Source of the DNA: Thermoplasmatales archaeon SG8-52-3
GTDB taxonomy: Archaea; Thermoplasmatota; E2; DHVEG-1
Length of the DNA: 64,000 nucleotides
NCBI GenBank assembly: GCA_001595915.1
Contig: LSSG01000053.1
Location: 3,416-67,415 of the forward strand
Reading direction: 5' to 3'
Shown here piece by piece: positions 584-52,457 of this stretch (the first letter of the stretch is position 1; every line of letters starts with the position of its first letter). The translations under genes and the position numbers were made by a program. Below the pieces are notes generated by a model that was given only the letters and a program-made list of their open reading frames with translations, did no database searches and was not told where the DNA came from.

Positions 584-677
584 TTTTTTATTCCTTTTTT
601 AAAAAATAATCATTTAATTTTAACTTAAAAGTTTAATCATTAATTGAAAAAATTTGATTTCTTTTTTGATTAAAATG

Positions 678-1973: not shown

Positions 1974-2042
1974 AGATTTTCAATTTGGACAGTTTTTCTA
2001 CTAATTTTAACTTTTAAATATTTTTTATAGATATGATAATCA

Positions 2043-3173
2043 CTAATATTCTGAAACATATTTTGCTATATTTACCCCATTAGTAATCCATGCTTTTTTC
2101 TCACAACAATATTTTAAGATTTTTTCATATAATTTAGTCCATTCTGAATCAAATAACCCTGCATAAGAAACTGGATAAGAAAAAGTCCAATTATGCCAAA
2201 GAATTGTTAAAACACCATTTAATTTTTCAATATTATCTATTAATTTTTTTAATAAAATCCAAGCTTCTTTTACACCAATTTTCATATATGAAAACATGGT
2301 AATATCTGCAACACAAACTGGAATTTCTAAAATATCAATTTTTTTATTTTGATTTAAATCATATGGAAAAAAAGGATGACACATTCCATTTCTGAAACCT
2401 ATCATGTCATAATATCCATAACTTGAATCATAAAAAAATCCTGCTTGATTTAATATTTCCCAAGTTCTTGGAATTTTAAATCTTAATATATGATTTCTAA
2501 CCCCAATAACTCTTTTTTTAGTAATTTTTTCTAACTTTTTTTTCTCTTTTTTTATTTTTTCTAAATCATCAAAACTATAAAATCCAGTATGGAGTCCAAT
2601 TTCACAATTATTGTCTATTATATCTAATATTTCATCCTGAATTTCATCTATGTGATATTTTTTACCAAAAATATCTTGCTGAGTTGCAAGAAAAAAGAAT
2701 GTTGAAATAGCATTGTATTTTTCTTCAAGATTGATAATTTTTTTAAAATTAATGTAAGGTTTTTCTTTTTTTAAATATGAAAAAATAAATTTTTTAGTAC
2801 CAAAATAATCCCTATGAAAGGGATAAGGAATAATTGAACGGAATAATTGTTTACCTGTAATATTTATGTCATCAACGTCATGGGATAAAAAAACTGCAAA
2901 TTTTTTTCCATCTTCATATTCAAAATTAAATCCTTTTTTAATTAAATATTCTGAAACAATTGGAATTAATACATTCTTTTGTTTTGTTAATTTATAAGAT
3001 AAAATATCATTTTTTATTGATTCACTTATCCTATATTCTTCTTTTTTTAAAAAAAGATTCCATATATCTTTGTCTTTTTTTAGTTCATTATGTATATAAT
3101 TCCAGTTTGGCTTTGAATTAGAATGTGAAGCCATCAAATTAGTAATATAACACATAATCAAATATTCTTTCAT
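2043..3173 (-). CDS. Polysaccharide deacetylase (CE4/NodB family)
   Basis: FLSHDVDD and LHTGFY motifs typical of the NodB homology domain. 376 aa. Confidence 0.6.
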   Translation of the reverse strand: MKEYLIMCYITNLMASHSNSKPNWNYIHNELKKDKDIWNLFLKKEEYRISESIKNDILSYKLTKQKNVLIPIVSEYLIKKGFNFEYEDGKKFAVFLSHDVDDINITGKQLFRSIIPYPFHRDYFGTKKFIFSYLKKEKPYINFKKIINLEEKYNAISTFFFLATQQDIFGKKYHIDEIQDEILDIIDNNCEIGLHTGFYSFDDLEKIKKEKKKLEKITKKRVIGVRNHILRFKIPRTWEILNQAGFFYDSSYGYYDMIGFRNGMCHPFFPYDLNQNKKIDILEIPVCVADITMFSYMKIGVKEAWILLKKLIDNIEKLNGVLTILWHNWTFSYPVSYAGLFDSEWTKLYEKILKYCCEKKAWITNGVNIAKYVSEY

Positions 3174-3259
3174 TTTTAATTTTTAAAAATCAAAAAATAT
3201 TGTTTCAATAAATCTTTAATAAAAGTATAAATAACATTATCTAATTTTAAAGACAAAAA

Positions 3260-4486
3260 ATGAAAAAGTATTCTATATTAATAAAAAGTGCTCACTGGAC
3301 ATGTTTACCAAATTTAATTTTTTGTTCAATGTTATATCAATATTTTTTAAAAAATGGTCATAGAATAACAAAAGAACCAACAAAAGCAGATTTTATTATA
3401 ATTAGTACCTGTGGAGTATTGACACAAATCGAAGATAAAACTATTGATCTATACAATAATTATAAAAATTTGAAACGAAAAGATGCTCAAATAATTATGT
3501 TTGGTTGCCTTTTAAAAACTAATAAAGAAAAAATAAAAAATTTAGATTTTTATCATATTGAATTCGAAGAGACTTATAAACTAGATTTATTGTTTTATTC
3601 AAAAATTAAGTTTGAAAAAATAAAACCAATTTGTGATGAAGAAACTAAGACTAAATTGCTTTATAATGAAAAAACCCATGGTTTTGTAAAAAGATATCCA
3701 TTTTTTTTAACTAAAATGTTTTTTCCATTTTCAAAAAAACTTAAGTTAAAATATAAAATAATAATTAAAGATCTTACTCATAAAGATAGAATTTTTGTTT
3801 TAATTAGTAGAGGTTGTATTAGTAATTGTAATTATTGTGTTATTAAAAAAGCCAAAGGACGATTAGTATCTAGAACTATTAAAGACATTTTAAATGACAT
3901 AGAATCAATATATGATCCAAAGAAAACACTTTTTTTAGTAGCCGATGACTGTGGTTGTTATGGATTTGATTTAAAAACAAATTTAATAGACTTAGTATAC
4001 AAAATAAATAAAAAATTTCCAAAAACAAAAATTGACTTAAATTATCTCAATCCAACAATTTTACAAAATGATGCTGATAAATATGTACAGTTATTCAAAG
4101 ATATTTCTTTTAGATATGTTATAGTACCTTTACAAAGTGGATCCAATAAAATAATTAAAAAAATGAATCGTAAATATGATGTTAAAAAAGTTTTAGCTTT
4201 TGCTGATAAAATTAAGAAAATATCTCCAGATACAATTCTATATGCACATTTTATTATAAACTATCCAGAAGAAAACATAATAGATTTTTTAAAAACTTTA
4301 ATTACATTATTTCATTTCGATGTTCCATTACCATTTATTTATACTCCAATGAAAGGAACAAATAGTTTTTCTACAATAAAAATAGTTTCAAAAATAAAAG
4401 GTAGATTAAAATGGTATGTTTTTATGAGCATTTCCAATATAGTTATTTTATTTAAAACAATTAAATATCAAAAATTAGTTGAATGA
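3260..4486 (+). CDS. Radical SAM enzyme with MiaB/MTTase-like N-terminal domain
   Basis: N-terminal TC...ADFIIISTCGV...GCL pattern (MTTase_N-like), then CxxxCxxC (GCISNCNYC). No obvious TRAM domain. Confidence 0.6.
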   Translation: MKKYSILIKSAHWTCLPNLIFCSMLYQYFLKNGHRITKEPTKADFIIISTCGVLTQIEDKTIDLYNNYKNLKRKDAQIIMFGCLLKTNKEKIKNLDFYHIEFEETYKLDLLFYSKIKFEKIKPICDEETKTKLLYNEKTHGFVKRYPFFLTKMFFPFSKKLKLKYKIIIKDLTHKDRIFVLISRGCISNCNYCVIKKAKGRLVSRTIKDILNDIESIYDPKKTLFLVADDCGCYGFDLKTNLIDLVYKINKKFPKTKIDLNYLNPTILQNDADKYVQLFKDISFRYVIVPLQSGSNKIIKKMNRKYDVKKVLAFADKIKKISPDTILYAHFIINYPEENIIDFLKTLITLFHFDVPLPFIYTPMKGTNSFSTIKIVSKIKGRLKWYVFMSISNIVILFKTIKYQKLVE

Positions 4487-4519
4487 CAATTAGTTAAAAA
4501 ATATAAAGTAGGTATTATC

Positions 4520-5110
4520 TTGCCGAATTTCCTAAATGATAGAGATTTAAAATTGAATATTTCAACATTAATAATATACAATAGTAAACCTTATTCTTTT
4601 TTTAAGAAAATTTCACCATGGTATTGGTTCATCCGCCCAATGACAAAATATTTACTAAATAATTATTCCAATAATAAACTAATTGGAGTTGAGATAGGAG
4701 TAGAATATGGTCTTAATGCAAAGACAATGCTAAAATTCCTTTCTATTGAGAAATTATTTTTGATTGATCCTTATAAAGATAAACTTGGAGATGAATGTTT
4801 TAAACAAACAAAAATTTTTTTAAGAAAATATAGTAATAAAATTATATTTATTAGAAAATCCTCTGAATCTGCAGTAAACGATATTCCAAATAATTTAGAT
4901 TTTGTTTATATTGATGGAAGCCATGAATATAAATTTGTAAAAAAGGATATTGAACTTTATTATGATAAAATAAAATCAGGTGGATTAATTGGAGGTCATG
5001 ATTTTTGGGCAGATCATATAGGAGTTTGTAAAGCAGTACTTGAATTTGCAAATGAAAATAAATTAAAAATTAATGGAAATTTAACAGATTGGTGGATTAT
5101 AAAAAAATAA
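4520..5110 (+). CDS. Class I SAM-dependent methyltransferase (TylF/CmcI, Methyltransf_24-like)
   Basis: GVEIGVEYG, DGSHEY and GGLIGGHD motifs as in macrocin-O-methyltransferase-like sugar O-methyltransferases. Confidence 0.55.
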   Translation: MPNFLNDRDLKLNISTLIIYNSKPYSFFKKISPWYWFIRPMTKYLLNNYSNNKLIGVEIGVEYGLNAKTMLKFLSIEKLFLIDPYKDKLGDECFKQTKIFLRKYSNKIIFIRKSSESAVNDIPNNLDFVYIDGSHEYKFVKKDIELYYDKIKSGGLIGGHDFWADHIGVCKAVLEFANENKLKINGNLTDWWIIKK

Positions 5111-5124
5111 TATAATGGCATATT

Positions 5125-6090
5125 ATGTTTGAACAAACATTTAGATTGTTAGATTTAGTAAAATTATATGGTTTTGCTACCATATATAAAAGACCATTAA
5201 GATATACTCATGAAATTACAAGAAGGTGTAATCTTTATTGTCCTAACTGTTATGTTTATAATTTTAACCCAGATTATAAAAATAAAACAAGATTAGAAAT
5301 ATTTGACGAAGTAAAAAAAAATGAGCTAACATTAGAAGACTATAAAAAAATTTTTCAAGAAGAAAAGAAAAAGGGTTGCAGATCAGTTTTTTTAATAGGT
5401 GGCGAACCGACTTTACGAATGGATATCATAAAAATTGCTTATGGATATTTTGGAAGAAATACATCTCTTATTACAAATGGTTTAATTAAAATTCCAACAA
5501 TTTTAAAGATTCCTTTTGCAGTTTCCATTGATGGTGGGAAAATAGTTCATGATGAAATTCGTGGAAATGGTACTTGGAATCGTATTTTTGAAAACTATTC
5601 AGATGATTATAGAGTGATGCTATCATGCTGTTTAAGAAAAAATACTGCAAATCAAATTCAAAAAGTAATTGATGAATGGATTGATACAGATGTTTTTGGA
5701 GTTTCATTTTTTTTCTTAACACCTTCAAAAAAAAATTCTTCTATTACAGTTATTGGAAACGAAAGAAATTATGCAAAAAAAGAATTACATAGGGTTGTTG
5801 ATGAATATCCGAATTTTGTTAGAATGACGCATCAACTAGTTGACCTTTTAGGTGAATTGAATAAAGGTCAATGTCCTGTTTTTAATTATTCATTATGGTA
5901 TGATTATAAAGGTGATTTAATTGATTATTGCCTACTTGGAAAAGATGCTGATTGTAATCTTTGTGGTTGTATTTCACCTCTTTATTTAAAAATGTTTTCA
6001 AGTTGGTGGAAATTATTAAATAAAAAATCCCTAGATATATTTACTCTACCTCGCGATATAAAACAATGTAGAAAGAGAGGACAAAAATAA
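5125..6090 (+). CDS. Radical SAM/SPASM-domain protein
   Basis: CNLYCPNC (CxxxCxxC) near the N-terminus. C-terminal Cys-rich auxiliary-cluster region (CPVFNYSLWYD...CNLCGC). Confidence 0.7.
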   Translation: MFEQTFRLLDLVKLYGFATIYKRPLRYTHEITRRCNLYCPNCYVYNFNPDYKNKTRLEIFDEVKKNELTLEDYKKIFQEEKKKGCRSVFLIGGEPTLRMDIIKIAYGYFGRNTSLITNGLIKIPTILKIPFAVSIDGGKIVHDEIRGNGTWNRIFENYSDDYRVMLSCCLRKNTANQIQKVIDEWIDTDVFGVSFFFLTPSKKNSSITVIGNERNYAKKELHRVVDEYPNFVRMTHQLVDLLGELNKGQCPVFNYSLWYDYKGDLIDYCLLGKDADCNLCGCISPLYLKMFSSWWKLLNKKSLDIFTLPRDIKQCRKRGQK

Positions 6091-6103
6091 TAGGAAATAG
6101 TTT

Positions 6104-7447
6104 ATGAAAATATTATTAATTTGGCCGAGAAAATCATCATTGCTTTTTGATAATTCAAATATGGTAAAAATTTTTTCTATGTTTCTTTCAAGAATGAGTT
6201 TCCGTCGAAAACCAATAGTTTATTCAATTTTATCTGCTCTTACTCCTAATCATCATACTATTGATATTGCTGAAGGAGAAATAAATGATATAAATTTTAA
6301 CAAGGTTTATGACTTAGTTGGAATAACAAGTGTTACATCAAATGCTATTTTGTCTTATGAGATTGCAGATAAATTTAGAAAGCATAAAATACCTGTAGTT
6401 ATTGGAGGCCTTCATCCTTCTGTTTATCCTGAGGAAGCAAAAAAACATGCAGATTCTGTTGTAATAGGCGATGCTGAAGAAATTTGGCCAAAATTATTAA
6501 AAGATTTAGAAAACAATAAATTAAAACCATTCTATTATCAAAATCGTGTTGTTAATCCTAAACTAATTCCTCCATCTAAAAATGTTTATAAAAAAGGAAC
6601 TGGAATAGGCATTCAAGCAACAAGAGGATGTCCACAGAAATGTGAATTTTGCTCTATTCCAAATACTAAATTTGGAAATATTTATACAAAAAGACCAATT
6701 GAAAATGTAATAGAAGATATCAATAAATGTGAAAGAAAAATCTTTATTTTTCAAGATAACTCTTTAACTGTTGATACAAATTATACAAAAAAACTTTTTA
6801 GCAAGCTTATTGGAATAAATAAGAAATTCCTAGCATATGGAAATATTGACATTTTAGGAAAAGATGAAGAACTTTTAAAATTAGCAAATGAAGCTGGTTG
6901 TGTAGGATGGTTGATTGGTTTTGAGTCTGTATCTCAAGCATCAATAGATAGTATTGGAAAAAAAACAAATATTGTTAAAAATTATTTATCTGCTGTAAAA
7001 AAAATACATGATTTTGGTATGATTATTGAGGCTTCATTTGTATTTGGATTTGATCATGATAAAAAAGATATTTTTAATAAAACAGATGAATTTATTAGAT
7101 TGAGTGAAATAGGAATTCCTTTTGGTTTAATACTTACACCATATCCTGGAACAATACTATATAATCGATTGGAAAGAGAAAAAAGGATATTAACAAAAGA
7201 TTGGGATAAATATGATGGACTAAATGCAGTATTTAAACCTAAACATATGAGTTCTGAAACGCTTTTAAATAATACTGAGGCTCTAAATTTAAAATGGCAT
7301 AAAGGTTTGAATAGTATTGAAAGAATTATAAAAAATATGAGTTTTGGGTTTTATCCATTTACTGAAACATTAGTTATAGAAATTTATTGGAAATTAATTT
7401 ATCAAAGAATTGGAAAATTAAGTAATTTATATAGTAAAATACTCTAA
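6104..7447 (+). CDS. B12-binding (class B) radical SAM enzyme
   Basis: N-terminal cobalamin-binding Rossmann-like region (VGITSVTS...VVIGGLHPS), followed by TRGCPQKCEFC. Confidence 0.75.
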   Translation: MKILLIWPRKSSLLFDNSNMVKIFSMFLSRMSFRRKPIVYSILSALTPNHHTIDIAEGEINDINFNKVYDLVGITSVTSNAILSYEIADKFRKHKIPVVIGGLHPSVYPEEAKKHADSVVIGDAEEIWPKLLKDLENNKLKPFYYQNRVVNPKLIPPSKNVYKKGTGIGIQATRGCPQKCEFCSIPNTKFGNIYTKRPIENVIEDINKCERKIFIFQDNSLTVDTNYTKKLFSKLIGINKKFLAYGNIDILGKDEELLKLANEAGCVGWLIGFESVSQASIDSIGKKTNIVKNYLSAVKKIHDFGMIIEASFVFGFDHDKKDIFNKTDEFIRLSEIGIPFGLILTPYPGTILYNRLEREKRILTKDWDKYDGLNAVFKPKHMSSETLLNNTEALNLKWHKGLNSIERIIKNMSFGFYPFTETLVIEIYWKLIYQRIGKLSNLYSKIL

Positions 7448-7449
7448 AG

Positions 7450-8454
7450 ATGTCAAATACTGATAAAAAATCTGAAATAATTCAAAGCTTTAATAATTAC
7501 ATTTTTTCAAAAAAAACATTTGATATTAAAGATACAGTTTTAGTTGCTGGTTCCCCAAGGTCAGGAACAACATGGATTACTGAATTATTAGCATATTTAC
7601 CAAAATATACCTATATTTTTGAACCTTTAAACCCGGTATGGAATCCTGAAATATTTAAAATTGGATTTTCTTCAAGAATGTATATTTCAAAAAATACTAA
7701 ATGGAATGAAGGAAAAAATTATCTTCTAGATGTTTTTACTGGAAAAACATCAAATTTACCAATAAAGGGAAGTATATCGAAAAGCATTATACCTGGTTTT
7801 TCATTAAATAAATTCTTTCATTTTTTATTAGGAAATAAGCTTATTATAAAATCTACAAATATGAATAGAATGCTTTCATGGATTAACAATAATTTTCAAT
7901 TACGCGATATCGTTTTAATTATTAGACATCCATGTGCATGTATTGCTTCTCAGATGAAGTCAGGTCTTTATGGATATCGAACTAATAAATCTCCTTATAT
8001 AGATATTATACCTACAAAAGAAATAATTTTAGATGAAATTCAAAAAATTTCTGAATTAAATGATTCGTTAATTAAAAAGATTAAAAATATCGATAAAAAA
8101 GAAGAGATATTTGCTACTGCATGGTGTCTTGATAATTATTTTTTAATTTCTCAAAAAAATTTTTACCCATGGAAATTAATTTTTTATGAAAAATTAATAA
8201 AAAATTCTGATGAAGAAATTATTAATCTTTTTAAAAAAATTGGGGAGAAAAAAGTACCTAAAAATGTGTTTAAAAATTTAAAAAAGCCAAGTTCAGTAAC
8301 AATGAAAGAAGATAAGAAATATATTAATCATCCAAATAAACAATTATCAAAATGGAAAGATTATCTTTCAGAGAAACAAATAAAGAGAATATTAAATGTA
8401 TTATCTATCTTTGAAATCGATTTATATAATGAAAATCTTGAACCTAATTATTAA
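7450..8454 (+). CDS. Sulfotransferase (PAPS-dependent, Sulfotransfer_3-like)
   Basis: 5'-PSB loop AGSPRSGTTW near the N-terminus. About 330 aa. Starts 3 nt after the upstream gene. Confidence 0.65.
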   Translation: MSNTDKKSEIIQSFNNYIFSKKTFDIKDTVLVAGSPRSGTTWITELLAYLPKYTYIFEPLNPVWNPEIFKIGFSSRMYISKNTKWNEGKNYLLDVFTGKTSNLPIKGSISKSIIPGFSLNKFFHFLLGNKLIIKSTNMNRMLSWINNNFQLRDIVLIIRHPCACIASQMKSGLYGYRTNKSPYIDIIPTKEIILDEIQKISELNDSLIKKIKNIDKKEEIFATAWCLDNYFLISQKNFYPWKLIFYEKLIKNSDEEIINLFKKIGEKKVPKNVFKNLKKPSSVTMKEDKKYINHPNKQLSKWKDYLSEKQIKRILNVLSIFEIDLYNENLEPNY

Positions 8455-8466
8455 ATAAAATATTAA

Positions 8467-9675
8467 CTATTTTTTTCTAATGTCCCCAACTTCAAAACCA
8501 CTATAAAATGTTGTTCTATCATTTTTTAATAGTTCAATTACCATATTCTTATCTTGATGAAATTCTAAAATATCTTTTGGTATGTATCTATCTTTTCTTG
8601 TTATTGAATAAAAAATTCTACTTTTATTTTTTCCGACTCTTATAATTTCTATTAAATTTTTTTTAAAATTTTTATCATCAATCCAATCAAAAATATTTGA
8701 AAGAAAAAATTTTGAAATTGAATTATCTTTAATTTCTTTTAAAGTATCAAATACTGATGCAGTTTTTATTTCTATTTTTTTAATTCTTTCTTTTAAAATC
8801 TTATAATTTTCTTGCTTTAAATAAGGGTAGTAATGGTTTTCATTTAATAAATATCCTAACAAAATTAATGATAAAAAAGAATTGTATTTTATTGGTATTT
8901 TTGTGTATATATCCTCAATTTTTTTTATATGATTTTTTGTAAAATTAACATTTTTAATATATCCTAAATAATCAGATTTTTTACGACCATGATAAAATTC
9001 AATTAAAAATCTAAAACATAATGATATCCTAATAAAATACTTATTATAGCCAAAAAAATGACCTAGTTGCCATGGCATACCATAGATATGTTTAAAAAAA
9101 TAGTCAGTTTGTTCCTTAATTGTTTCGCATAAAAAAAAATTTTTAATTAACTTTTCACCTTTTAAGAATCTTAAAAATAAACCAAAATTTTTAACATTTT
9201 GTTCTCCAACATTTAATAATCCTTTTTTAATTACAAAAGAATTTTTATCCCAAAAATTTCTAGCGTTTTTATTTAAATCTTTTTTTATAGAATTATAAAT
9301 TGATAAATTATTTTTTAAAGATTTTAAACCCATTAGTTTTAAAAAATCTAAATATTCAAGATTTTTTATTGCAGTTATTTTTAATTCTAATAAATAATTT
9401 TGAAAAGGATTAAAATCAACAGATATTATCTTTTTTGGATTATGTAAAAGTAAATTTAGAATGTTACAACCATTAGAAGTAATAGAAAATACTACATCAT
9501 TACTATTTATTTTGAGAGCTTTTTCAATTTGTAAAATATCTTCCCAACAATTGTAAAAATCTATCTTATTCATTATTTTTTGATCTGAAAAACTAAGTTT
9601 AGTGATATTTTTATCTTCCATTCCAATTTTAGAATCAATTTTTAATATAATATTTTTAAGCTTTGAAATATTCAA
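8467..9675 (-). CDS. DUF3419/BtaA-like SAM-dependent 3-amino-3-carboxypropyl-transferase-like protein
   Basis: FYNCWEDILQ...VFSITSNGCNILNLL...ISVDFNPFQ resembles the conserved N-terminal region of the DUF3419 (BtaA) family. About 400 aa. Confidence 0.45.
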   Translation of the reverse strand: MNISKLKNIILKIDSKIGMEDKNITKLSFSDQKIMNKIDFYNCWEDILQIEKALKINSNDVVFSITSNGCNILNLLLHNPKKIISVDFNPFQNYLLELKITAIKNLEYLDFLKLMGLKSLKNNLSIYNSIKKDLNKNARNFWDKNSFVIKKGLLNVGEQNVKNFGLFLRFLKGEKLIKNFFLCETIKEQTDYFFKHIYGMPWQLGHFFGYNKYFIRISLCFRFLIEFYHGRKKSDYLGYIKNVNFTKNHIKKIEDIYTKIPIKYNSFLSLILLGYLLNENHYYPYLKQENYKILKERIKKIEIKTASVFDTLKEIKDNSISKFFLSNIFDWIDDKNFKKNLIEIIRVGKNKSRIFYSITRKDRYIPKDILEFHQDKNMVIELLKNDRTTFYSGFEVGDIRKK

Positions 9676-9688
9676 AAATTGTAAAATA

Positions 9689-10840
9689 ATGAAAATTACC
9701 CTGATTGGTACGTTACCACCTATAAAAGCGCTAAGCCCCTATTGTTACCATTTAGCTGATGCATTATCAAAAAAAGTAGATTTAGATTTTTTTAATTTTA
9801 AAAATAGTCTACCAGAATCTTTATATCATGGAGGAATGACAGAGAAAAAAAATGAAAAAATTCAAACTCCTAACTTAAAAATTAAAACTATTATTAATTG
9901 GTGGAATCCATTTTCATGGATTAAAGTTGGAATTGTAGTAAAAGGGGATATTGTTCACGTACAACATTGGTCTTTGTATTCAGGATTAATTTATTGTTTT
10001 ATTTTACCAATTACTAAATTGCGTGGTAAAAAAAATGTATTAACAATTCATAATATTACTCCACATACAGATGATTTTTTAACAAAATTTTTTGATAAAA
10101 TGATTAATAAAATTATTCTCCCGTATACAAATCATATTATTGTTCATAACAAGAGAAATAGAAATAAATTTTTTGAACTTTATAGTATAGATAAAAAAAT
10201 TGTGACAATAATATCTCATGGCTCTATAATGCCTTATAATAAAATAAAAAATATTTCAAAAACTGATGCTAGAAAAAAATTAAATATATCACCTGAGAAA
10301 AAAGTGATATTATTTTTTGGTTATATATGGGACTATAAGGGTTTAGATATTTTACTTTCATCATCAAAAATCATTAAAGAAAAAATTAAGAATTATTTAC
10401 TCTTAATTGCTGGTCAACCCTTAAAAGACTGGAAAAAATATGATAAAATTATTTTGAAAGATAATTTAAATGAGATAATTCTGAAAAAATTAGAATATAT
10501 TTCTGATTCAGAAATTGAATATTATTTTTCAAGTAGTGATCTTGTTGTATTGCCATATAAGAAACATCCGTTTGATACTCATGGTGGAGTAGGAGCTTTA
10601 GCTTTATCATTTAACAAACCAATTTTAGTAACAGATGTTGGTGGATTACCTGAATATGTAAAAAACAATAAAGTTGTTGTTGAGCCTAATAATGAAAAAG
10701 AATTAGCTGAAAAAATAATATTTGTATTAGAAAATAAAGCTTTGTTAAAAAAACTTTCAAATGATTCAAAACTGTTATCAAAAGAATTGAGCTGGGATAA
10801 AATCGCTGATCAAACAATAGAAATTTACACTAAAACATAA
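9689..10840 (+). CDS. Glycosyltransferase family 4
   Basis: C-terminal GGVGALALSFNKPILVTDVGGLPEYV (GT4 E-x7-E region). Start set at ATG 9689 (MKITLIGTLPP), not the track's upstream start that overlaps the neighbour. Confidence 0.8.
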   Translation: MKITLIGTLPPIKALSPYCYHLADALSKKVDLDFFNFKNSLPESLYHGGMTEKKNEKIQTPNLKIKTIINWWNPFSWIKVGIVVKGDIVHVQHWSLYSGLIYCFILPITKLRGKKNVLTIHNITPHTDDFLTKFFDKMINKIILPYTNHIIVHNKRNRNKFFELYSIDKKIVTIISHGSIMPYNKIKNISKTDARKKLNISPEKKVILFFGYIWDYKGLDILLSSSKIIKEKIKNYLLLIAGQPLKDWKKYDKIILKDNLNEIILKKLEYISDSEIEYYFSSSDLVVLPYKKHPFDTHGGVGALALSFNKPILVTDVGGLPEYVKNNKVVVEPNNEKELAEKIIFVLENKALLKKLSNDSKLLSKELSWDKIADQTIEIYTKT

Positions 10841-10847
10841 CTAAGGA

Positions 10848-11822
10848 TTATTTTCGTCTTTTTGATTCAATTAAATTTTTTAAATAAGTTAAATTTTGTT
10901 TGAAAAAATAATTTGGTAGTCTATTAAAATATGACATTCCAAAATAGCAATCAATAGTGCAATGATTACAAAAATTATATTTTCCAGCCTTTTCAAAAAG
11001 TTGGTACCATTCTTTTGAATTATAGAGAGTATGTAATTTTCCATCGATTTTGATTTTTTTATTATAATTATGAGTACATGGAATAATTAAAGTATCATCT
11101 GGTCCAATATCTATTGTAGATAATCCTGCTTGACATTTAGATTTTGATGGATTATTTCCACCTCTTTTATGAAAATCAAGTTGAGGTAGACTCATTCTTA
11201 TGTATGGATTCCAAAAATTTTTCTTAATTTTTTTTATATTGTCTTTATTTAACGATTTATTGCCAAAATATGAAAAACAAGGGTGAATATAGGTTGTTAT
11301 TTTATTAGAATCAGCAAAATTTACAATTTCTTGTAAATTTTTTATGTTTTTATCTGTTACAGTATATAATAAACATATTTCTTGTTTATTATTTATTGCA
11401 ATATTAATGCCTTCTATAAGTTTATCATATCCATCGATACCTCTAATTTTTTTATATTCTTCTTTAGAGGTTGTATCAAATGAAAAATATGTTCTACTAG
11501 GAAGGTTTTTTATTTCTTTAAATCTATCCTTATAAAAATAACCATTTGTTGAAAGTTTTACAAAAAAGCCTAGTTGTTTTGCAGAGGCAAGAATTTGTGG
11601 TAAATCTTTGTTTAATAATGGTTCACCACCAGTAAAATCAATAAACTTTACTCCTATTTTTTTTAAATCAACTAAATTTTTTTTTACATCTGTAAATTTT
11701 GCATCAAAAATATTCTTGTATGAATTATTTCTCCAAAAATTACAAAATTCACATTTTGAATTACATCTATAAGTGACCCAATAATTGCAAAAAAAAGGTT
11801 TTTTATTTATTAAAAAGGTCAT
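10848..11822 (-). CDS. Radical SAM/SPASM(twitch)-domain protein
   Basis: YRCNSKCEFC motif and FTGGEPLL. C-terminal extra Cys cluster (CQAG...IPC...CNHCTIDC). Confidence 0.7.
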   Translation of the reverse strand: MTFLINKKPFFCNYWVTYRCNSKCEFCNFWRNNSYKNIFDAKFTDVKKNLVDLKKIGVKFIDFTGGEPLLNKDLPQILASAKQLGFFVKLSTNGYFYKDRFKEIKNLPSRTYFSFDTTSKEEYKKIRGIDGYDKLIEGINIAINNKQEICLLYTVTDKNIKNLQEIVNFADSNKITTYIHPCFSYFGNKSLNKDNIKKIKKNFWNPYIRMSLPQLDFHKRGGNNPSKSKCQAGLSTIDIGPDDTLIIPCTHNYNKKIKIDGKLHTLYNSKEWYQLFEKAGKYNFCNHCTIDCYFGMSYFNRLPNYFFKQNLTYLKNLIESKRRK

Positions 11823-11993
11823 TTTTTATCGTATTTTATAAGTTATAAATCTTTTTAAATTTGCTGTTTAAAAAATTGTTATATAACAAATTAGTATCAT
11901 TTCTTTTAAAAAACAACAAAAATCTTTATACATAATTAATTATCATAAATTTAAAAAAAATTCATAACAAAATAAAATTTTGGGAAAAATAAT

Positions 11994-13061
11994 ATGAAGA
12001 TTCCATGGTCAATTCCAAATATTCAAGATAAAGAAATAGAATCAATAAATAGAGTGCTAGATTCTGGATGGCTTTCAATGGGTAAAGAAGTAAAAAAATT
12101 TGAAGAAAAAGTTGCTTCTTATCTAAAAATAAAATATTCAATTTCAGTTAATAATGGTACATCTGCTTTAGATCTTGCTTTAAAGTGTTTAGATCTCAAT
12201 ACAAAAGATGAGATCATAATCCCTGCCTTAACCTATATTGCGACTGGAAATGTTGTTTTATATAACAATTGTATACCTGTATTTGTTGATATTGATAATA
12301 CTTTGAATATAGATACCACCCTAATTGAAGAAAAAATAACAAAAAAAACAAAGGCAATAATTAATATTGATCTAGGTGGAAATCCAACAAATTATAAAAA
12401 TTTATTAAAAATATCTGATGAAAATTCTTTACCTTTAATTGTTGATGGTGCACAATCTTTTGGTTCAGAATATCAAAATAAAAAATGTTGCACACATGGT
12501 CTAATAAATACAACCAGTTTTCATGCAGCAAAAATAATAACTACAGTTGAAGGAGGAATGATTTTTACTAACGATAAAAAAATAAATGATAAAGCAAATA
12601 TTTTAAGAAATCAAGGTGAAACATCAAAATATATACACAGCTATCTTGGTAACAATTATAGAATGACTGATTTAGCAGCTTCAATTGGGAATTCTCAGAT
12701 GGATAGGTTTGAAACTACTCTAGAAGAACGAATAAATAAAGCAAAATATTATAAACAAAATCTAAAAAATGTAGATTATCCTGAAGAATTACAAAACACT
12801 AAAAATTGTCATTTTTTCTTTTTAATTTTAGTTAAAAATAGAAATAAATTAAACAAATGCCTAAATAAAAATGGAATAGAAACACGAATAACTTATCCTT
12901 TACCGATAAATGAACAAACTATATTTAAAAAATATAGTAAACAAGATTATATTTCAGCAAAAAAATTTTCAAAAAAAGTAATATCATTACCTATTCATCA
13001 TAAACTAACAATAGACGAACAAGATTATATTATTAAGAAAATTAACAATTTTGATAGGTGA
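11994..13061 (+). CDS. DegT/DnrJ/EryC1/StrS-family PLP-dependent sugar aminotransferase
   Basis: NGTSALDLAL and SFHAAKIITTVEGG motifs. Confidence 0.85.
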   Translation: MKIPWSIPNIQDKEIESINRVLDSGWLSMGKEVKKFEEKVASYLKIKYSISVNNGTSALDLALKCLDLNTKDEIIIPALTYIATGNVVLYNNCIPVFVDIDNTLNIDTTLIEEKITKKTKAIINIDLGGNPTNYKNLLKISDENSLPLIVDGAQSFGSEYQNKKCCTHGLINTTSFHAAKIITTVEGGMIFTNDKKINDKANILRNQGETSKYIHSYLGNNYRMTDLAASIGNSQMDRFETTLEERINKAKYYKQNLKNVDYPEELQNTKNCHFFFLILVKNRNKLNKCLNKNGIETRITYPLPINEQTIFKKYSKQDYISAKKFSKKVISLPIHHKLTIDEQDYIIKKINNFDR

Positions 13062-13066
13062 TATAA

Positions 13067-13999
13067 ATTAATATATTAGTTACTGGAGGTGCTGGATATA
13101 TTGGTAATATATTAGTACCTGAATTATTAAAAAAGAAATATTATGTTAGAGTATTTGATAATTTAACGTATGGTATCGATGGTATTCTTCCTCATTTTAG
13201 TAATAATAATTTTGATTTTACCAAGGGAGATATAACAAACATTGTTGACATTAAAAAATCACTTGATGATATCGATTTTGTAATACATTTAGCAGCTATT
13301 GTTGGCTATCCAGCATGCAGAGCTAGACCCGATCTTGCACATAAGGTTAATTTTATTGGAACAAAAAATCTATTAAGTTATTGTAAAGTCCCATTTTTTT
13401 ATCCATCTACTGGCAGTAGTTATGGTAAAGTTGAAAAAATATGTACTGAAGAAACTCAATTAAAACCATTAACCGAATATGGTGAAACTAAAACTAATGG
13501 TGAAGAGATTGTAAAACAATATTCAGATTATGTTATATACCGTTTTTCAACAGGTTTTGGATTATCACCAAGACTTAGACTTGATCTTCTTGTTAATAAT
13601 TTCTTAATAAAAGCAATGCGCGAAAGGGAATTAATTGTGTATGAAAAAAATTATTGGAGATCTTTTATTCACGTCAAAGATATTTCTAGAAGTATTATTT
13701 TTGCTATTGAAAACTTTGAAAAAATGAATGGAGAAATATACAATGTAGGATCTGAAAAATTATGTCTAACAAAGGAAGATGTAGCCTTAAAAATTAAAAA
13801 TTATGTTGATTTTCATTTAAAATTTGCTGAATTTGGAAAAGACCCAGATAAAAGAAATTATAAGGTAAGTTTCAAAAAGATAAAATCATTGGGTTTTAAT
13901 ATAAAATTTGATTTAGATTATGGTATTAAAGAAATGATTAAGGCATTTCAATTTATTGAGTTAAAAGATGATTATTTTAATTATAAGGTTTTTAAATGA
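13067..13999 (+). CDS. NAD-dependent epimerase/dehydratase (extended SDR); apparent non-canonical AUU start
   Basis: The open frame encodes (I)NILVTGGAGYIGN...YGETK, with the Rossmann motif and YxxxK. There is no ATG/GTG/TTG until codon ~184. AGGTGA at 13056..13061 sits 5 nt upstream of ATT 13067. Confidence 0.7.
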   Translation: MNILVTGGAGYIGNILVPELLKKKYYVRVFDNLTYGIDGILPHFSNNNFDFTKGDITNIVDIKKSLDDIDFVIHLAAIVGYPACRARPDLAHKVNFIGTKNLLSYCKVPFFYPSTGSSYGKVEKICTEETQLKPLTEYGETKTNGEEIVKQYSDYVIYRFSTGFGLSPRLRLDLLVNNFLIKAMRERELIVYEKNYWRSFIHVKDISRSIIFAIENFEKMNGEIYNVGSEKLCLTKEDVALKIKNYVDFHLKFAEFGKDPDKRNYKVSFKKIKSLGFNIKFDLDYGIKEMIKAFQFIELKDDYFNYKVFK

Positions 14000-14448
14000 A
14001 TAATAATTTGTTAATTTTTAGACCTTTTAATAAGAAAGACATAAATGAAGTTCTTGATCTATTGATAAATCTCAGTATAACTAATAAAGAATTCTTTCAT
14101 CCCTATAAATTTGATAAAAAAACCCTTTTAAAAAATTATAATTCTGATGATTTTTATTTTGTTATGGTAATTAATAATGTTATTATTGGATACTCTTTTT
14201 TAAGATTCTTTGGATATAAAATTCCAAGTTTTGGTTGCTGTATTAAAAATGGATATGAGAATAAAGGTTATGGTGAAAAAATCACAAAGTTAACCATTAA
14301 AAAGGCAAAGGAACTTGGATATAAAAAAGTAATTTTAAAAACATATAAAAAAAATATATTTGCAAAAAAAATCTATGATAAAGTTGGTTTTAAAGTTATT
14401 GGAGAAACAGATGATAAAAGACAGTATAAAATGGAACTGATTTTGTAA
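13996..14448 (+). CDS. GNAT-family N-acetyltransferase
   Basis: GYENKGYGEKI...GFKVIG acetyl-CoA binding region. Its start overlaps the epimerase stop (ATGA). Confidence 0.7.
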   Translation: MNNNLLIFRPFNKKDINEVLDLLINLSITNKEFFHPYKFDKKTLLKNYNSDDFYFVMVINNVIIGYSFLRFFGYKIPSFGCCIKNGYENKGYGEKITKLTIKKAKELGYKKVILKTYKKNIFAKKIYDKVGFKVIGETDDKRQYKMELIL

Positions 14449-14650: not shown

Positions 14651-14845
14651 ATGAAAATAGAAGTTTCGAATTTAACTTATAATAAATTAAAAACTATAAA
14701 AGAAAATGAGTTTGAAGGATATGATTTTGATATGATGATAAAATATCTATTAACATTTTATAACCAGAATAAAAAAAATCATCAATTATTTAAAAAGATG
14801 GAAAAAGAAGTAGAAAATCTTATGAAATTGGCAAAGGGAACTTAA
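14651..14845 (+). CDS. Hypothetical 64-aa protein
   Basis: ORF preceded by GAGGATAAA-ATG. No Cys. Function unknown. Confidence 0.3.
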   Translation: MKIEVSNLTYNKLKTIKENEFEGYDFDMMIKYLLTFYNQNKKNHQLFKKMEKEVENLMKLAKGT

Positions 14846-14960
14846 ATTTAGAAAAGATATCTTTAAACTTATTTTCAGATTATTTAGGATTTTTTATATA
14901 TCAGTTGCTATTGTAAGATTTAAATATCCTTTATATTATTTATTTTAGGGAGGCTTTCAT

Positions 14961-16763
14961 CTGAAAATAAACATTTATTCTAAAGGATTATCTGTTTTTT
15001 TCATTCTTACAATTATTTCCCCTATAACTGTTAGTTATATTGATAAGGATATGATGATCAATGTAAACTCCAATGATAAAACTGAGGTTAATAATATAAT
15101 AGCCAATGGTTTTTTGAATTATTCTAAAGGTGCAGCAGACTGGCTAATAAATGAATCTATTGAAATAGGAGACGGGTATAAATGGCCTGATTCAGTTGGT
15201 AGTTCTTATTACTATACTGATCTATATTATGGTTCACCAGGTATTGTTACATTATTTTCAGAACTATATAAAATAACAGGTAAGGATGAATATTTTCAAT
15301 ATACGGTTGGAGGGACAGAATGGTTGATTGAAAAAGCTATTTCTGAAGCAGGTGGTTATAAATGGCCTGAGAAGGAAGATTTACCTTTGTATTATACTGG
15401 ATTATATGTAGGAGCTGCTGGAACCGGTGAATCATTTCTCAATCTATATAAAACCCTATCAGACACATTTTATCTAGAATATGCTTCAGGAGCTGCTAAT
15501 TGGTTATTGAGTGTTGCAGTATTTGAAAATCAAAATGAATGTAAATGGCCAAGCTCTCAATATGCTACCGACTATTGTACTGATATTATATATGGAGCAG
15601 CTGGTATCGGCTTATTTTTATTGCAAATGTATGATTTGACAAATAACATAGAATATCTAAATTACTCACGATATGCAGGAAACTGGTTAATTAATCAAGC
15701 AAAACCTTCAGGTAGTGGTTATAAATGGGAGGTATCAAACAATTGTCCATATATTTATACAGGTTTTTCACATGGTGCTGCTGGAATTGGATATTTTCTT
15801 GCTAAATTATTTGAACATACAAATAACTCACAATTTCTCGAATATGCAAAAGGTGCTGCCCAGTGGCTAATTGATATTGCAGTTACCGAATCAGGTGGTT
15901 GTAAATGGTGGTCTAAAGAAGGTGATACTCCAAGTTATGCTACAGGATGGTGTCATGGTCCTGCTGGAACATGTTTGTTATTTATGAAACTCTATCAAAT
16001 TACCTCTGAAAATATTTATCTAACTTATGCAGAAATGGGTAGCACATGGCTTATTAGTCTTGCCATTCCAAGCGAAGGAGGATACAAATGGCCACATTAT
16101 CAAGGATCCCCAAATTATGATACAACCATTTGTCATGGAGCAGCTGGAATTGGTGATTTTTTTCTAAGGATGTCTGATCTTACAAATGAAGGTTTTTATT
16201 ATGACTATGCTAAAGGTGCAGCAGAATGGTTAAAGAGTGTTGCCGATACTTCTGCTGGAGATTATCGTTGGGCAACTTTTGGTTCATATTATACAGGTTT
16301 TTCTACAGGTACATCTGGGATAGGGCTCTTTTTCTTAAGAATCTATAATCCACCAGACAAACCTAATCTAGTTTGTTCTGGTAACCTAAATTGGGTAAAT
16401 GTGAAACCCAATTCAAAAATTATAGGTTATTTTCAAGTCGAAAATATTGGTGACCCTAATTCATTATTGTCTTGGGAGATAATTGAACGGCCAGAATGGG
16501 GTAATTGGTCATTTACTCCAGATAGTGGAATTGATTTAATGGCTAATGAAAAAATAAATATTACTGTAGAGTTAATTGCTCCAAACGAAAAAGAAAAGGC
16601 GTATACAGGTAAAGTAATCCTAGTTAATAGTGAAGATTTAAATGATACTTGCAGCATTGATGTGTCACTTAGTACACCAAAAAATAGAGGTGTATATCAA
16701 CTTTATTTCATACGATTGCTTGAACGTTTTATAATGCTTGAAAGACTGCTGAATCTTATATAA
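14961..16763 (+). CDS. LanC-like (lanthionine-synthetase-C-like) seven-repeat alpha-toroid protein with predicted N-terminal signal/anchor and C-terminal beta-sandwich module
   Basis: Seven ~58-aa repeats (YxxAxGAAxWL...GGYKWP...YTGxxHGAAGIG). The LanC Zn/catalytic motifs are in canonical order: GFSHGAAG, GWCHGPAG, TICHGAAG. A first ATG lies at 15051. An in-frame hydrophobic leader (KINIYSKGLSVFFILTIISPI) begins at CTG 14961, 7 nt after GGGAGG. Confidence 0.7.
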   Translation: MKINIYSKGLSVFFILTIISPITVSYIDKDMMINVNSNDKTEVNNIIANGFLNYSKGAADWLINESIEIGDGYKWPDSVGSSYYYTDLYYGSPGIVTLFSELYKITGKDEYFQYTVGGTEWLIEKAISEAGGYKWPEKEDLPLYYTGLYVGAAGTGESFLNLYKTLSDTFYLEYASGAANWLLSVAVFENQNECKWPSSQYATDYCTDIIYGAAGIGLFLLQMYDLTNNIEYLNYSRYAGNWLINQAKPSGSGYKWEVSNNCPYIYTGFSHGAAGIGYFLAKLFEHTNNSQFLEYAKGAAQWLIDIAVTESGGCKWWSKEGDTPSYATGWCHGPAGTCLLFMKLYQITSENIYLTYAEMGSTWLISLAIPSEGGYKWPHYQGSPNYDTTICHGAAGIGDFFLRMSDLTNEGFYYDYAKGAAEWLKSVADTSAGDYRWATFGSYYTGFSTGTSGIGLFFLRIYNPPDKPNLVCSGNLNWVNVKPNSKIIGYFQVENIGDPNSLLSWEIIERPEWGNWSFTPDSGIDLMANEKINITVELIAPNEKEKAYTGKVILVNSEDLNDTCSIDVSLSTPKNRGVYQLYFIRLLERFIMLERLLNLI

Positions 16764-24169: not shown

Positions 24170-24454
24170 ATGAAAAAGAAAATCTTATTTGGTTGTATTA
24201 TAGTTGCATGTGTTCTTATGTTATTACCATCCACATCTGCTGCCGAATCAAACTCAATTAAAGATAGAATCTTATTAAAAGAAACCATCCAAAAACAAAT
24301 TGATCAAAATCCAATTTATAAGGTTAGCTCACATGAGCCAGCATGTATTCTTAGATTATTACTAATAATTCGTAATTTATTATTACTAGGAATAGTAGGT
24401 ATAATTGGAATAATATTTACTCTACTAAATCTTATAAACAATAGTTCTGCTTAA
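24170..24454 (+). CDS. Small secreted/membrane protein (94 aa)
   Basis: Signal peptide and C-terminal TM. Strong SD GGGGGAGGTG 8 nt upstream. Confidence 0.35.
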   Translation: MKKKILFGCIIVACVLMLLPSTSAAESNSIKDRILLKETIQKQIDQNPIYKVSSHEPACILRLLLIIRNLLLLGIVGIIGIIFTLLNLINNSSA

Positions 24455-34150: not shown

Positions 34151-35287
34151 TCATTTGCCAATAAAATAACCAATAATATGATTTAGTTTTGGAAATTTCT
34201 CTATAAGTCTTTGAATCAATGAATTGTATGTTATTTTTGATCTTGGTGTTTTAAGATAAACATCAATTTCACAGAAGTTTGATGTATCATCTGAATTAAT
34301 GATTTTTATTTTTCCAATAAATTCCTCAGTTTTATTTGTAGGTGCCGTAACATTTACAGTAATCGTTACACATTCTCCTTCTTGTAAACCTTGACCGCTA
34401 TCTGGTTCAATTTCAAAAACTGCTCCTGGCCAATTTGGAGCTGATTCAAACTGCCAATTTAATATTGTGCCATTGTCTCCACAGTTACATATTTCAAATG
34501 TATCTGAAACTGTAGTTCCAGGTGGTACATCTTCCCAAGAAAGACTACCATCGCAACAGATAGCTGAATCACCTTCAGAAACCATAAAATCATCTACCAT
34601 TAAAAACCAAGAGTCATATGACACACAGTGAATTCCAATATATATGCTCTGGTCATCATAGGAGTCTAGATTATATGAATATTTTGTCCATTCTGTTGGT
34701 GGTTCAATATATGGTGCAGATGATATTATTGTAAAGCTTGTAGGATCTGTATCTGTTGTAGATACTCCAACTTCAATTCTTTCAATGTTATATTGATCTG
34801 AATAAGATTTCGCCCAAAAAGAAACAGTACCAAAATTATTTGGTTCTAATTGAGGAGTAATCAACCAATCATCATTTTGTAACGTATTTTGAACAGCCCA
34901 ACAAACTGTATATTTATCACCTGTATGAGCTAATAATTCAGGATCTTCTTGTGGTGGATCACATGCCAACGGATTGAAAATTAGAAATGCATATGCTTCA
35001 TTTTCATGTGTAAAATTAAATGCTGAATGACCCCATGTAAGTTCTCCATCTACATCAATATTAGTCCATGGTTGAAAATCTATTGAAAAATCTTCATATG
35101 CTTCGAAGCTATCCTCAAATAAAGCATTAGTTTGCAATATTTTTGGTTTATTAATGTTTGAGATAATATTTTTTGTTATTGATGAAATTTCAATTGCTTC
35201 TTTATTATCAGCAATAACAGCAGATGTTGAAAAAACCAATATAAAAGATATCAACAATACTGTATTTGCTTTTATAAAATTTTTCAT
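34151..35287 (-). CDS. Secreted protein: choice-of-anchor-J-like domain + C-terminal module shared with the LanC-like protein
   Basis: Signal peptide. WTNIDVDGE...DDWLITPQLEP...VSFWAK...ERIEVGVST resembles choice-of-anchor J. The last ~120 aa align with the tail of 14961..16763. Confidence 0.45.
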   Translation of the reverse strand: MKNFIKANTVLLISFILVFSTSAVIADNKEAIEISSITKNIISNINKPKILQTNALFEDSFEAYEDFSIDFQPWTNIDVDGELTWGHSAFNFTHENEAYAFLIFNPLACDPPQEDPELLAHTGDKYTVCWAVQNTLQNDDWLITPQLEPNNFGTVSFWAKSYSDQYNIERIEVGVSTTDTDPTSFTIISSAPYIEPPTEWTKYSYNLDSYDDQSIYIGIHCVSYDSWFLMVDDFMVSEGDSAICCDGSLSWEDVPPGTTVSDTFEICNCGDNGTILNWQFESAPNWPGAVFEIEPDSGQGLQEGECVTITVNVTAPTNKTEEFIGKIKIINSDDTSNFCEIDVYLKTPRSKITYNSLIQRLIEKFPKLNHIIGYFIGK

Positions 35288-49578: not shown

Positions 49579-49667
49579 TTAAAAATACAGTATTAAGTAA
49601 TTTTTAATGTAGTTTGCGTAAAAATAATTTAAAATATTAGTTTATACTTTAAGGGTGAGGTGTTAAT

Positions 49668-50576
49668 CTGGAAAAACTGGAAGTTAATATAGCATCTCTT
49701 AAATTAGATAACCCATTGATTCTTGCTTCAGGTTTAATGGATGAAGATGCAGGAAGCATGGAACGTATTTTTAATAATGGTGCTGGCGCAATTGTAACAA
49801 AATCTATTGGATTAAAACCGCGTGATGGTTATCCAAATCCAACCATAATTGAATTAGAACATGGAATTTTAAATGCTGTTGGTTTACCAAATCCAGGAAT
49901 AGAAAATTTTAAGGATGAAATTCTTACCCTTAAAAAATCAAATATACCTATTATTGGTAGCATCTTTGGTTCAGATTCTAAAGAATTTGTAACACTTGCT
50001 AAAAAAATGCAAAATTATGGTGTTAACGCATTAGAACTAAACATGAGTTGCCCTCATGCAAAAGGATATGGATTAGAAATTGGTTGTGACCCTGATCTAG
50101 TAAAAGAAATTACTTCGCAAGTAAAAAAATCAACAAAAATACCTATTTTTGTTAAGATTTCACCAAACTTATCAAACATTATTGATATTGCTAAATCAGC
50201 AAAAGAGGGAAATGCAGATGGAATAGTAGCAATTAATACCGTAAAAGCAATGAAGATAAATCTTGAATTAAAAATACCAGTTCTTTCAAATAAAATTGGT
50301 GGATATTCTGGAAATGCTATAAAACCGATTGGTATTCGTTGTGTTTATGAAATAAAAGAAAACATTGATATTCAAATAATCGGGGTTGGTGGGATAACAA
50401 CAGGTAATGATGTAATAGAGTATTTTATGGCAGGTGCATCTGCTGTTCAAATAGGTTCAGGAATATACTATAGAGGAGTTGATGTTTTCAAAAAAATTAA
50501 AAATGAAATTATTTCCTGGATGAAATCCCATAATATAGATAATATTTCAGAGTTAATTGGAGTTGCACATAAATGA
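49668..50576 (+). CDS. pyrD: Dihydroorotate dehydrogenase catalytic subunit (class 1B); apparent CUG start
   Basis: The conserved N-terminus (EKLEVNIASLKLDNPLILASG) lies upstream of the first TTG/ATG. GGTGAGGTG sits 5 nt before CTG 49668. Also SCPH and GGI motifs. Confidence 0.8.
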   Translation: MEKLEVNIASLKLDNPLILASGLMDEDAGSMERIFNNGAGAIVTKSIGLKPRDGYPNPTIIELEHGILNAVGLPNPGIENFKDEILTLKKSNIPIIGSIFGSDSKEFVTLAKKMQNYGVNALELNMSCPHAKGYGLEIGCDPDLVKEITSQVKKSTKIPIFVKISPNLSNIIDIAKSAKEGNADGIVAINTVKAMKINLELKIPVLSNKIGGYSGNAIKPIGIRCVYEIKENIDIQIIGVGGITTGNDVIEYFMAGASAVQIGSGIYYRGVDVFKKIKNEIISWMKSHNIDNISELIGVAHK

Positions 50577-52302: not shown

Positions 52303-52457
52303 AGATACACCTTATAAATTTATGTATTAAAAATAGTTTTAATATAATTAATTTTCGAATTTGAAATAAATAGTTATTGTTATAAAAAAATTTTTTACAA
52401 AATATTAATATATTATTAAAATAACTTCTATATATACCTTTGATTAAAAGGTGTACT

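Follow-up and report, generated by a model that had tools for sequence, protein, structure and literature searches.

Background

How can a gene be translated when the first ATG, GTG or TTG in its frame lies deep inside the enzyme that it encodes? This question is raised by a NAD-dependent sugar epimerase/dehydratase gene of the extended short-chain dehydrogenase/reductase (SDR) type, found in a stretch of 64,000 nucleotides from Thermoplasmatales archaeon SG8-52-3 (contig LSSG01000053.1), here called the window. The window is AT-rich (GC 21-33%) and encodes a series of archaeal markers, namely an archaeal-type LeuRS, LonB, Hef, the A and B subunits of an A-type ATPase and Pus10. The pyrD and LanC-like products of the window match proteins of SG8-52-3 at 100% identity. 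An earlier note on this DNA had proposed that the epimerase starts at an AUU codon, placed by a Shine-Dalgarno (SD) sequence that overlaps the upstream gene's stop codon. The comparative data, which comprise the junctions of relatives and the signature of purifying selection, support this proposal. We consider it quite probable that the epimerase is translated from AUU 13067 by SD-led initiation at a near-cognate codon, possibly aided by coupling to the upstream DegT gene.

Epimerase gene and upstream junction

The features of the locus are as follows (coordinates in the window):

11994..13061, + strand: DegT/DnrJ/EryC1-type aminotransferase, upstream in the same operon (PF01041, E=1e-106, residues 9-350)
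13056..13062, + strand: SD AGGTGAT, a 7-nt match to GGAGGTGATC, with the DegT stop inside
13058..13066, + strand: in-frame GTG ATA TAA; the GTG, part of the SD, shares GTGA with the DegT stop and is shut off by TAA 13064
13067..13069, + strand: ATT, proposed start codon, first codon past the in-frame stop and 5 nt after GGTGA; AUU presumably read as methionine
13067..13999, + strand: extended-SDR NAD-dependent sugar epimerase/dehydratase coding sequence, 310 codons plus TGA (PF01370; homologues up to 85% identity)
13996..14448, + strand: GNAT acetyltransferase, ATG overlapping the epimerase stop (ATGA)

The frame 13067..13999 encodes a complete extended-SDR enzyme, as had been claimed: its 310 open codons cover the full Epimerase profile in a Pfam search (PF01370, residues 3-228, profile positions 1-240 of 240, E=3e-39). 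The glycine motif TGxxGxxG of the Rossmann fold is present as TGGAGYIG at residues 6-13 of the ATT-initiated product, and the catalytic YxxxK motif as YGETK. A search against NCBIfam gave no equivalog above cut-off. Since the profile begins at residue 3 with its first position, the domain is complete only with a start at 13067-13073. The first ATG, GTG or TTG in the frame is indeed no earlier than codon 184 (ATG 13616). For a random stretch of 183 codons to stay open we calculate a probability of about 1e-7 (some 8.6% stop codons at approximately 26% GC), and an open frame by chance can be ruled out.

The 3' end of DegT reads ...AAT TTT GAT AGG TGA, with the stop TGA at 13059-13061, and is separated from the ATT by the spacer TATAA (13062-13066). 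The earlier note had placed AGGTGA correctly, at 13056-13061 and 5 nt before ATT 13067. It had overlooked, however, that GTG 13058 within this motif is in frame with the epimerase and is cut off by TAA 13064. The frame reads GTG(13058) ATA TAA(13064) ATT(13067) AAT ATA TTA GTT ACT GGA GGT... Downstream, the overlap of the GNAT ATG with the epimerase stop places the acetyltransferase in the same operon. We rejected a DegT-epimerase fusion through a frameshift: the epimerase frame is interrupted by several stops ahead of 13067, and that of DegT closes at 13061. The Rfam scan of the window returned no RNA family, so the junction is not explained by a riboswitch or leader.

The organism uses SDs, and the spacing at ATT 13067 fits. 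An exact GGAGGTGATC 5-mer is located 3-11 nt before the canonical start in 14 of 54 genes, against 2.6% of internal in-frame NTG codons. Examples are GGGGTGA-CTAAA-ATG at 61036, AGGGTGAT-AAATAG-ATG at 39277 and GGAGGTGA-AATATAAAA-ATG at 24170. The gaps at the epimerase (4 nt from AGGTGAT, 5 nt from GGTGA) are in the same range as those of canonical starts in the window. AGGTGAT as such is not enriched over the whole window (11 observed, 7.3 expected), and the weight therefore lies in its conserved position rather than in its mere presence.

Conservation of the junction in relatives

Three further assemblies of the same organism (L028, L029 and L030, from JGI 3300027917, ENA ERZ27279932 and Logan SRR6207735 data) carry an identical 80-nt junction, with 0-4 differing positions elsewhere over 3-9 kb. 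Gene callers yield only an epimerase stub of 120 or 127 aa in them. We also read the DNA of relatives at 65-85% protein identity at the epimerase locus, where the junctions are:

L004: GAGTGA-TTTGA-ATT; in-frame stop, no canonical start
L020/L021: GGGTGA-TTTAA-ATA; in-frame stop, no canonical start
L022: GTGTGA-CCTAA-ATT; in-frame stop, no canonical start
L023: GGGTGA-TCTAA-ATA; in-frame stop, no canonical start
L018/L019: GGGGTGA-TGTAAA-ATT; in-frame stop is the DegT TGA itself, no in-frame GTG
L003: GTG ATA AAA ATA AAA ATA TTA; open from the GTG of the SD
L005: GTG AGA GAT ATT; open from the GTG of the SD
L031: GGGGTGA-GAAT-ATT; SD and ATT kept
L032: GGAGATGATC-AT-ATC; SD-like motif and ATC kept, DegT not upstream
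L006: ATG exactly at the Ile position

Five other diverged lineages (65-80% amino acid identity) thus share an in-frame stop, no canonical start and an ATT or ATA 4-6 nt after GGTGA. ATT, ATA or ATC (ATH) occupies the position in 11 of the 12 loci read, L006 having ATG, and the related loci, 11 in number, carry a GGTGA-type motif at the corresponding place, with L006 as the exception. The epimerase frames of the relatives are all intact, with 309-310 codons, and the gene order DegT-epimerase-GNAT is kept in L018, L020, L023 and L031. In L003 and L005 the callers start at the GTG of the SD because the stretch from there to the ATH codon happens to be open. Scanning genome contigs with the epimerase brought up two loci only, both bacterial and distant.

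One arrangement deserves separate mention. DegT and the epimerase share a frame in L018/L019 (2980-2991), with only TGA TGT AAA between DegT and the ATT. Read-through of the TGA would fuse both enzymes; there is no evidence that this fusion happens.

Start calls and selection across the family

The pattern in the family was derived from the 92 closest database proteins (top 92 matches), with P0093-P0120 as a distant set. Fifteen of the 92 orthologues have their Met1 aligned to ATT 13067 (MR/K-I/V-L-x-TGG). Upstream-extended calls are more numerous (41/92). The extension is usually exactly 3 residues and corresponds to a GTG, ATG or TTG overlapping the DegT TGA, and 37 of these 41 have Ile where ATT 13067 aligns. 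Several of the extensions are simply the SD read in frame, as in G-D (GGTGAT) or W-G-E (GGGGTGA). The remaining 36 calls (about 39%) are truncated: they begin at the V or L of LVTGG or deeper (for example MTGGAG... and VTGGAG... in the protein collection), and their first residue is always M, V or L. All four truncated calls that were sampled (P0006, P0007, P0010 and P0042) proved to be of the type with a stop before ATH.

The Ile is no structural requirement, because distant homologues vary at this position (K, L, V, N, M, T or G, unless it is their first residue). A neighbour-joining tree shows Ile-extended and truncated states mixed with each other throughout, and ATG in a small number of derived clades. 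Such mixing is what one would predict were ATH the genuine, long-standing start and the bases upstream an unconstrained spacer, which would sometimes happen to leave the GTG of GGTGA open and in frame.

The ratio of non-synonymous to synonymous substitution (dN/dS) over codons 1-183 is 0.09-0.27 between the window and eight relatives, with dS above 1 and saturated. Given these low values and the intact open reading frames (ORFs), the Rossmann half must be translated, also in lineages without a canonical start.

Parallels in pyrD and a LanC-like gene

Two other genes in the window show the same design:

49653..49662, + strand: SD of pyrD, GGGTGAGGTG, with the in-frame TGA 49656-58 inside
49668..50576, + strand: pyrD (dihydroorotate dehydrogenase 1B) coding sequence, proposed CTG start 49668
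14948..14953, + strand: SD of the LanC-like gene, GGGAGG, 7 nt before CTG 14961
14961..16763, + strand: LanC-like exported protein coding sequence, proposed CTG start; first ATG 15051

For pyrD, GGTGAGGTG at 49654-49662 is followed by TTAAT and then by CTG 49668. The frame opens at 49659, and its first canonical codon, TTG 49716, is already at position 14-16 of the Pfam and NCBIfam profiles. L024 and L025 have exactly this SD, and L026 differs from it by one change. All three relatives (called 279 aa) read (T)AAGGGTGA GGT GTT AAx CTG, whereas the codons after the CTG vary. CTG 49668 aligns with Met1 or Leu1 (TTG) of 302-aa homologues. The architecture described earlier, an SD, a 5-nt spacer and a CTG, is therefore kept in relatives that also have no canonical start. 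About 40% of the listed pyrD homologues (P0121-P0240) are truncated 279-aa calls (MIPELL..., MDEDAGSM...), and the NCBI protein of this genome, P0121 (299 aa, MEVNIASL...), implies a CTG start at 49677. CTG 49668 appears to be the better-supported start, since three relatives share it, its distance from the SD is 5 nt and Met1 of the 302-aa homologues aligns with it; 49677, the second CTG, is further from the SD. A start at the out-of-frame GTG 49660, combined with an A5/A6 homopolymer error, was rejected as the same frame and CTG occur in the three relatives.

The LanC-like gene has its GGGAGG and CTG 14961 at the places given in the earlier note, and both are kept in relatives without a canonical start. 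The CTG is followed by MKINIYSKGLSVFFILTIISPITV, a signal-anchor-like segment ahead of the first ATG. In L027 the corresponding sequence is GAGTGA GGT TTA CAT CTG AAA AGA, with the TGA in frame and the CTG conserved. Other LanC-like relatives encode 'EGG' in frame (GAGGGAGG, which is the SD), followed by a conserved L-K-R-N-I. A 64-aa ORF (14651-14845) with a good SD (AGTGAGGATAAA-ATG) stands between GNAT and the LanC-like gene. It is called in other assemblies, and no Pfam match is recorded for it there.

The upstream neighbour of pyrD is divergent, so no coupling is involved, and the LanC-like gene likewise has no co-directional gene upstream. This suggests that the organism can start translation de novo at near-cognate codons when led by an SD. 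The wider claim of the earlier note, SD-driven initiation at codons other than AUG, GUG and UUG, gains support from the conserved CTG and SD of both genes. Three near-cognate-start genes among approximately 57 in the window is far above the rates of standard annotation. The truncated calls of the epimerase and pyrD likely arise because gene callers accept ATG, GTG and TTG only.

The start annotation of some other genes in the window also calls for comment. At 34151..35287 (- strand) the sequence reads GGAGGT-ATAAG-ATA AAA ATG, with the ATG 11 nt and the in-frame ATA 35293 5 nt from the SD. This ATA might be a possible fourth near-cognate start; the case is ambiguous, as a canonical ATG follows two codons later. 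In the genes at 52440, 58375, 59642-61045, 61038-62831, 23101-23958 and 37174-37992 a TTG or GTG that begins the longest ORF sits a few codons before an SD-served ATG, as with the GGGGTGA-CTAAA-ATG at 61036, and the longest-ORF starts of these genes are probably wrong.

Proposed initiation and alternative explanations

We propose that the epimerase/dehydratase gene is intact and expressed, and that its translation would proceed from AUU 13067. On the DegT-epimerase-GNAT mRNA, AGGUGAU would pair with the 3' end of the 16S rRNA, and this long duplex would fix the P site 5 nt downstream. The initiator Met-tRNA would accept AUU through a match of two out of three bases, giving a protein that is predicted to begin MNILVTGGAGYIGN. 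The in-frame GUG would be part of the SD and spacer, closed by UAA, rather than a start. Ribosomes that end at the DegT UGA, 5 nt upstream, may add to epimerase initiation by re-initiating. The combination of SD and AUU or AUA (occasionally AUC) would be the ancestral and commonest state of the gene across a large Thermoplasmatota clade, a few sub-clades having switched to AUG. By the same design of SD and near-cognate codon, pyrD and the LanC-like exported protein would start at CUG. The predicted N-terminal peptides are (M)NILVTGGAGYIGNILVPELLK for the epimerase, (M)EKLEVNIASLK for pyrD and MKINIYSK for the LanC-like protein. The anatomy, the conservation and the purifying selection are observed; which amino acid comes first, how efficient initiation is and how much coupling contributes are what we infer from them.

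Several points weigh against initiation at AUU 13067. The aIF1 of S. solfataricus makes initiation complexes on AUU less stable (PMC4705826), and in E. coli ATT has about 0.3% of the activity of ATG (cited in PMC10666635). For AUU to be used efficiently, a strong SD, coupling or relaxed stringency would thus be required. Seen against this background, either expression would be deliberately low or the lineage would be more permissive. The 16S rRNA 3' end, the initiator tRNA and aIF1 of the organism lie outside the window, in which the tRNA/rRNA scan found a single tRNA (Pro) and no 16S rRNA. Where the upstream GTG is open in relatives, it could be the real start there; the conserved Ile would then need another explanation. 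Finally, the start may be two codons further on, at ATA 13073, or at some other codon shortly past the ATT. ATA is near-cognate too, and most orthologues have Ile or Val as their third codon. ATA 13073 is located 11 nt after GGTGA, however, beyond the 3-9 nt range of canonical starts in the window, and the Met1 of ATG-type orthologues aligns with ATT 13067 instead, which makes a start at ATA improbable.

The closest competitor, differing from our reading only in the dominant route, is that AUU initiation is mainly termination-reinitiation: ribosomes finishing DegT would restart 5 nt downstream with relaxed stringency, held in place by GGUGA. The two genes are co-directional, the DegT stop lies 5 nt before the ATT and within the SD, and the pairing of DegT and epimerase together with the stop in the SD is kept in most relatives. 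Archaeal coupling works at overlaps or very short gaps (PMC10666635), for which 5 nt qualifies. Still, pyrD and the LanC-like gene use an SD and CUG with no co-directional gene upstream, and L032 retains its SD-like motif and ATC in the absence of DegT, so that we hold reinitiation as the main route to be rather unlikely. A recoding event, in which the UAA is read through from GTG 13058 or the mini-ORF GTG ATA TAA feeds re-initiation at the adjacent ATT, could draw on the occurrence of GTG-Ann-TRA-ATH in five loci (window, L004, L020, L022 and L023). Geometry suffices to explain this pattern: the GTG belongs to GGTGA and is in frame only at a spacing of 5 nt, and a stop can arise only in the codon that precedes ATH. 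In L018 and L031 the spacing is different and there is no in-frame GTG mini-ORF, the in-frame sequence upstream in L018 being DegT alone, so the GTG is not shared by all members. Besides, this GTG, which sits inside the SD, is not itself served by one. Recoding is further disfavoured by stop usage, as TAA (37), TGA (10) and TAG (7) are all ordinary stops among 54 window genes, TAA and TGA accounting for 47. Altogether we regard it as very improbable.

Two further alternatives were weighed. The gene might be a pseudogene or nonsense mutant, in which a change from AAA to TAA at 13064 abolished an ancestral start at GTG 13058, so that the Rossmann half has ceased to be produced. P0003 indeed begins MIKINILVTGG, the window sequence with Lys for the stop, and L003 has GTG ATA AAA at this place. 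But the same type of stop is present in the five other diverged lineages, each with an intact ORF of 309-310 codons, L018 lacks any in-frame GTG, and the two states are interleaved in the tree. With the 310-codon ORF intact and the dN/dS of codons 1-183 far below 1 at saturated dS, the gene shows neither relaxed selection nor internal stops or frameshifts, and a pseudogene or nonsense mutant is highly unlikely. A sequencing or assembly error, which the earlier note had kept as its alternative, might be suspected in a metagenome-assembled genome (MAG) and in an AT-rich, low-complexity context; the identical junction in the three further assemblies and the same architecture in five other lineages, which are other species, rule it out for practical purposes. 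SD-led initiation at AUU 13067, with or without a contribution of coupling, accordingly remains the reading that we prefer.

Comparison with known systems

Known AUU starts include those of infC and pcnB in E. coli, and translation table 11 lists ATT, ATA, ATC and CTG as rare starts. The epimerase resembles these bacterial genes in that the near-cognate codon is conserved in orthologues, the SD stands at normal spacing and the first residue is presumably Met. It differs from them in its archaeal host, where the start codon is policed by aIF1 and aIF2 rather than IF3, and in that an entire clade has retained the state and at least three unrelated genes within 64 kb are affected. There is no sign of autoregulation as in infC, and the gene encodes a sugar-modifying enzyme.

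The start region of the P. abyssi aEF1A mRNA, GGAGGUGAUUUAAAUG, has the same SD core and the same spacing of GGUGA plus 5 nt (PMC6237735). In the model of that study the SD pre-positions the initiation complex, after which local scanning takes place. The start is AUG there, whereas AUU or CUG is concerned here, codons that aIF1 reportedly discriminates against (PMC4705826). Coupled gene pairs of Haloferax volcanii and E. coli are likewise co-directional, with the upstream stop at most 5 nt from the start and the SD in the end of the upstream gene (PMC10666635). In contrast to classical ATGA or GTGA coupling with canonical starts, the GTGA overlap is closed by a stop here and the ATT follows 5 nt further.

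Ribosome profiling in Haloferax volcanii gave near-cognate initiation sites, which were set aside as possible false positives (PMC7261190), and CTG-initiated small ORFs have been described in Methanosarcina mazei (PMC11456600). Like our loci, these sites indicate that archaeal ribosomes can initiate at near-cognate codons. They are mostly alternative starts or belong to small ORFs, whereas here full-size conserved enzymes have no other start available than the near-cognate codon, which is itself conserved in evolution. Switches of the start codon to CUG or AUU occur at approximately 1e-5 to 1e-4 per gene (PMC5622118). The SG8-52-3 genome is treated in a paper on Thermoprofundales, also known as MBG-D (PMC6461988). 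Our literature search found no report of evolutionarily conserved AUU, AUA or CUG starts of full-size archaeal enzymes, and nothing on start-codon usage in Thermoprofundales.

Other observations in the window

The first 12,000 nt of the window (1-12000) form a glycan-biosynthesis region with a GC content of 21-25%, against 27-33% in the remainder. Its genes comprise glycosyltransferases, radical SAM enzymes, a sulfotransferase-like gene, DUF3419, DegT, the epimerase and GNAT, and the region is possibly a variable surface-glycan island. For the 1057-aa ORF 52440-55631 (likely start ATG 52458, behind AAAGGTG) the Pfam and NCBIfam searches gave no match.

In bacteria, 16S rRNA modification of the KsgA/Dim1 type influences the fidelity of initiation at non-AUG codons. 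The ORF 39382-40131 (- strand), with the N-terminus MKKSLGQNFLIDRNV, is one that we take to resemble a KsgA/Dim1-type 16S rRNA dimethyladenosine transferase. Because of this effect in bacteria it would be a candidate for study if the lineage proves permissive.

Conclusions

SD-led near-cognate initiation appears to be a conserved trait of the Thermoprofundales-type lineage. The prevailing view, that archaeal genes start at AUG, GUG or UUG with AUU being rejected by aIF1 in vitro, is thereby challenged: conserved enzymes of an abundant uncultured sediment lineage seem startable only at AUU/AUA or CUG, and these starts have been kept through extensive divergence. The locus thus offers a concrete case from nature in which the fidelity of start-codon choice during SD-led initiation in archaea can be tested. 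A weak start beside a strong SD could also tune the stoichiometry within an operon. On the practical side, truncated calls that miss an N-terminal domain or strand (36/92 for the epimerase, about 40% for pyrD) distort MAG annotation and metabolic reconstruction.

A more far-reaching and tentative possibility, on which we would not yet rely, is that Thermoprofundales-type Thermoplasmatota have a genome-wide relaxed start stringency, with several percent of their genes starting at SD-positioned CUG, AUU or AUA. If true, such starts would have been kept over long evolutionary times (given the saturated dS), and about 40% of the database orthologues of affected genes would be misannotated as N-terminally truncated. 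It would also imply a change specific to the lineage, be it in aIF1, in the initiator tRNA or in the P site of the 30S subunit, unless weak starts are put to regulatory use.

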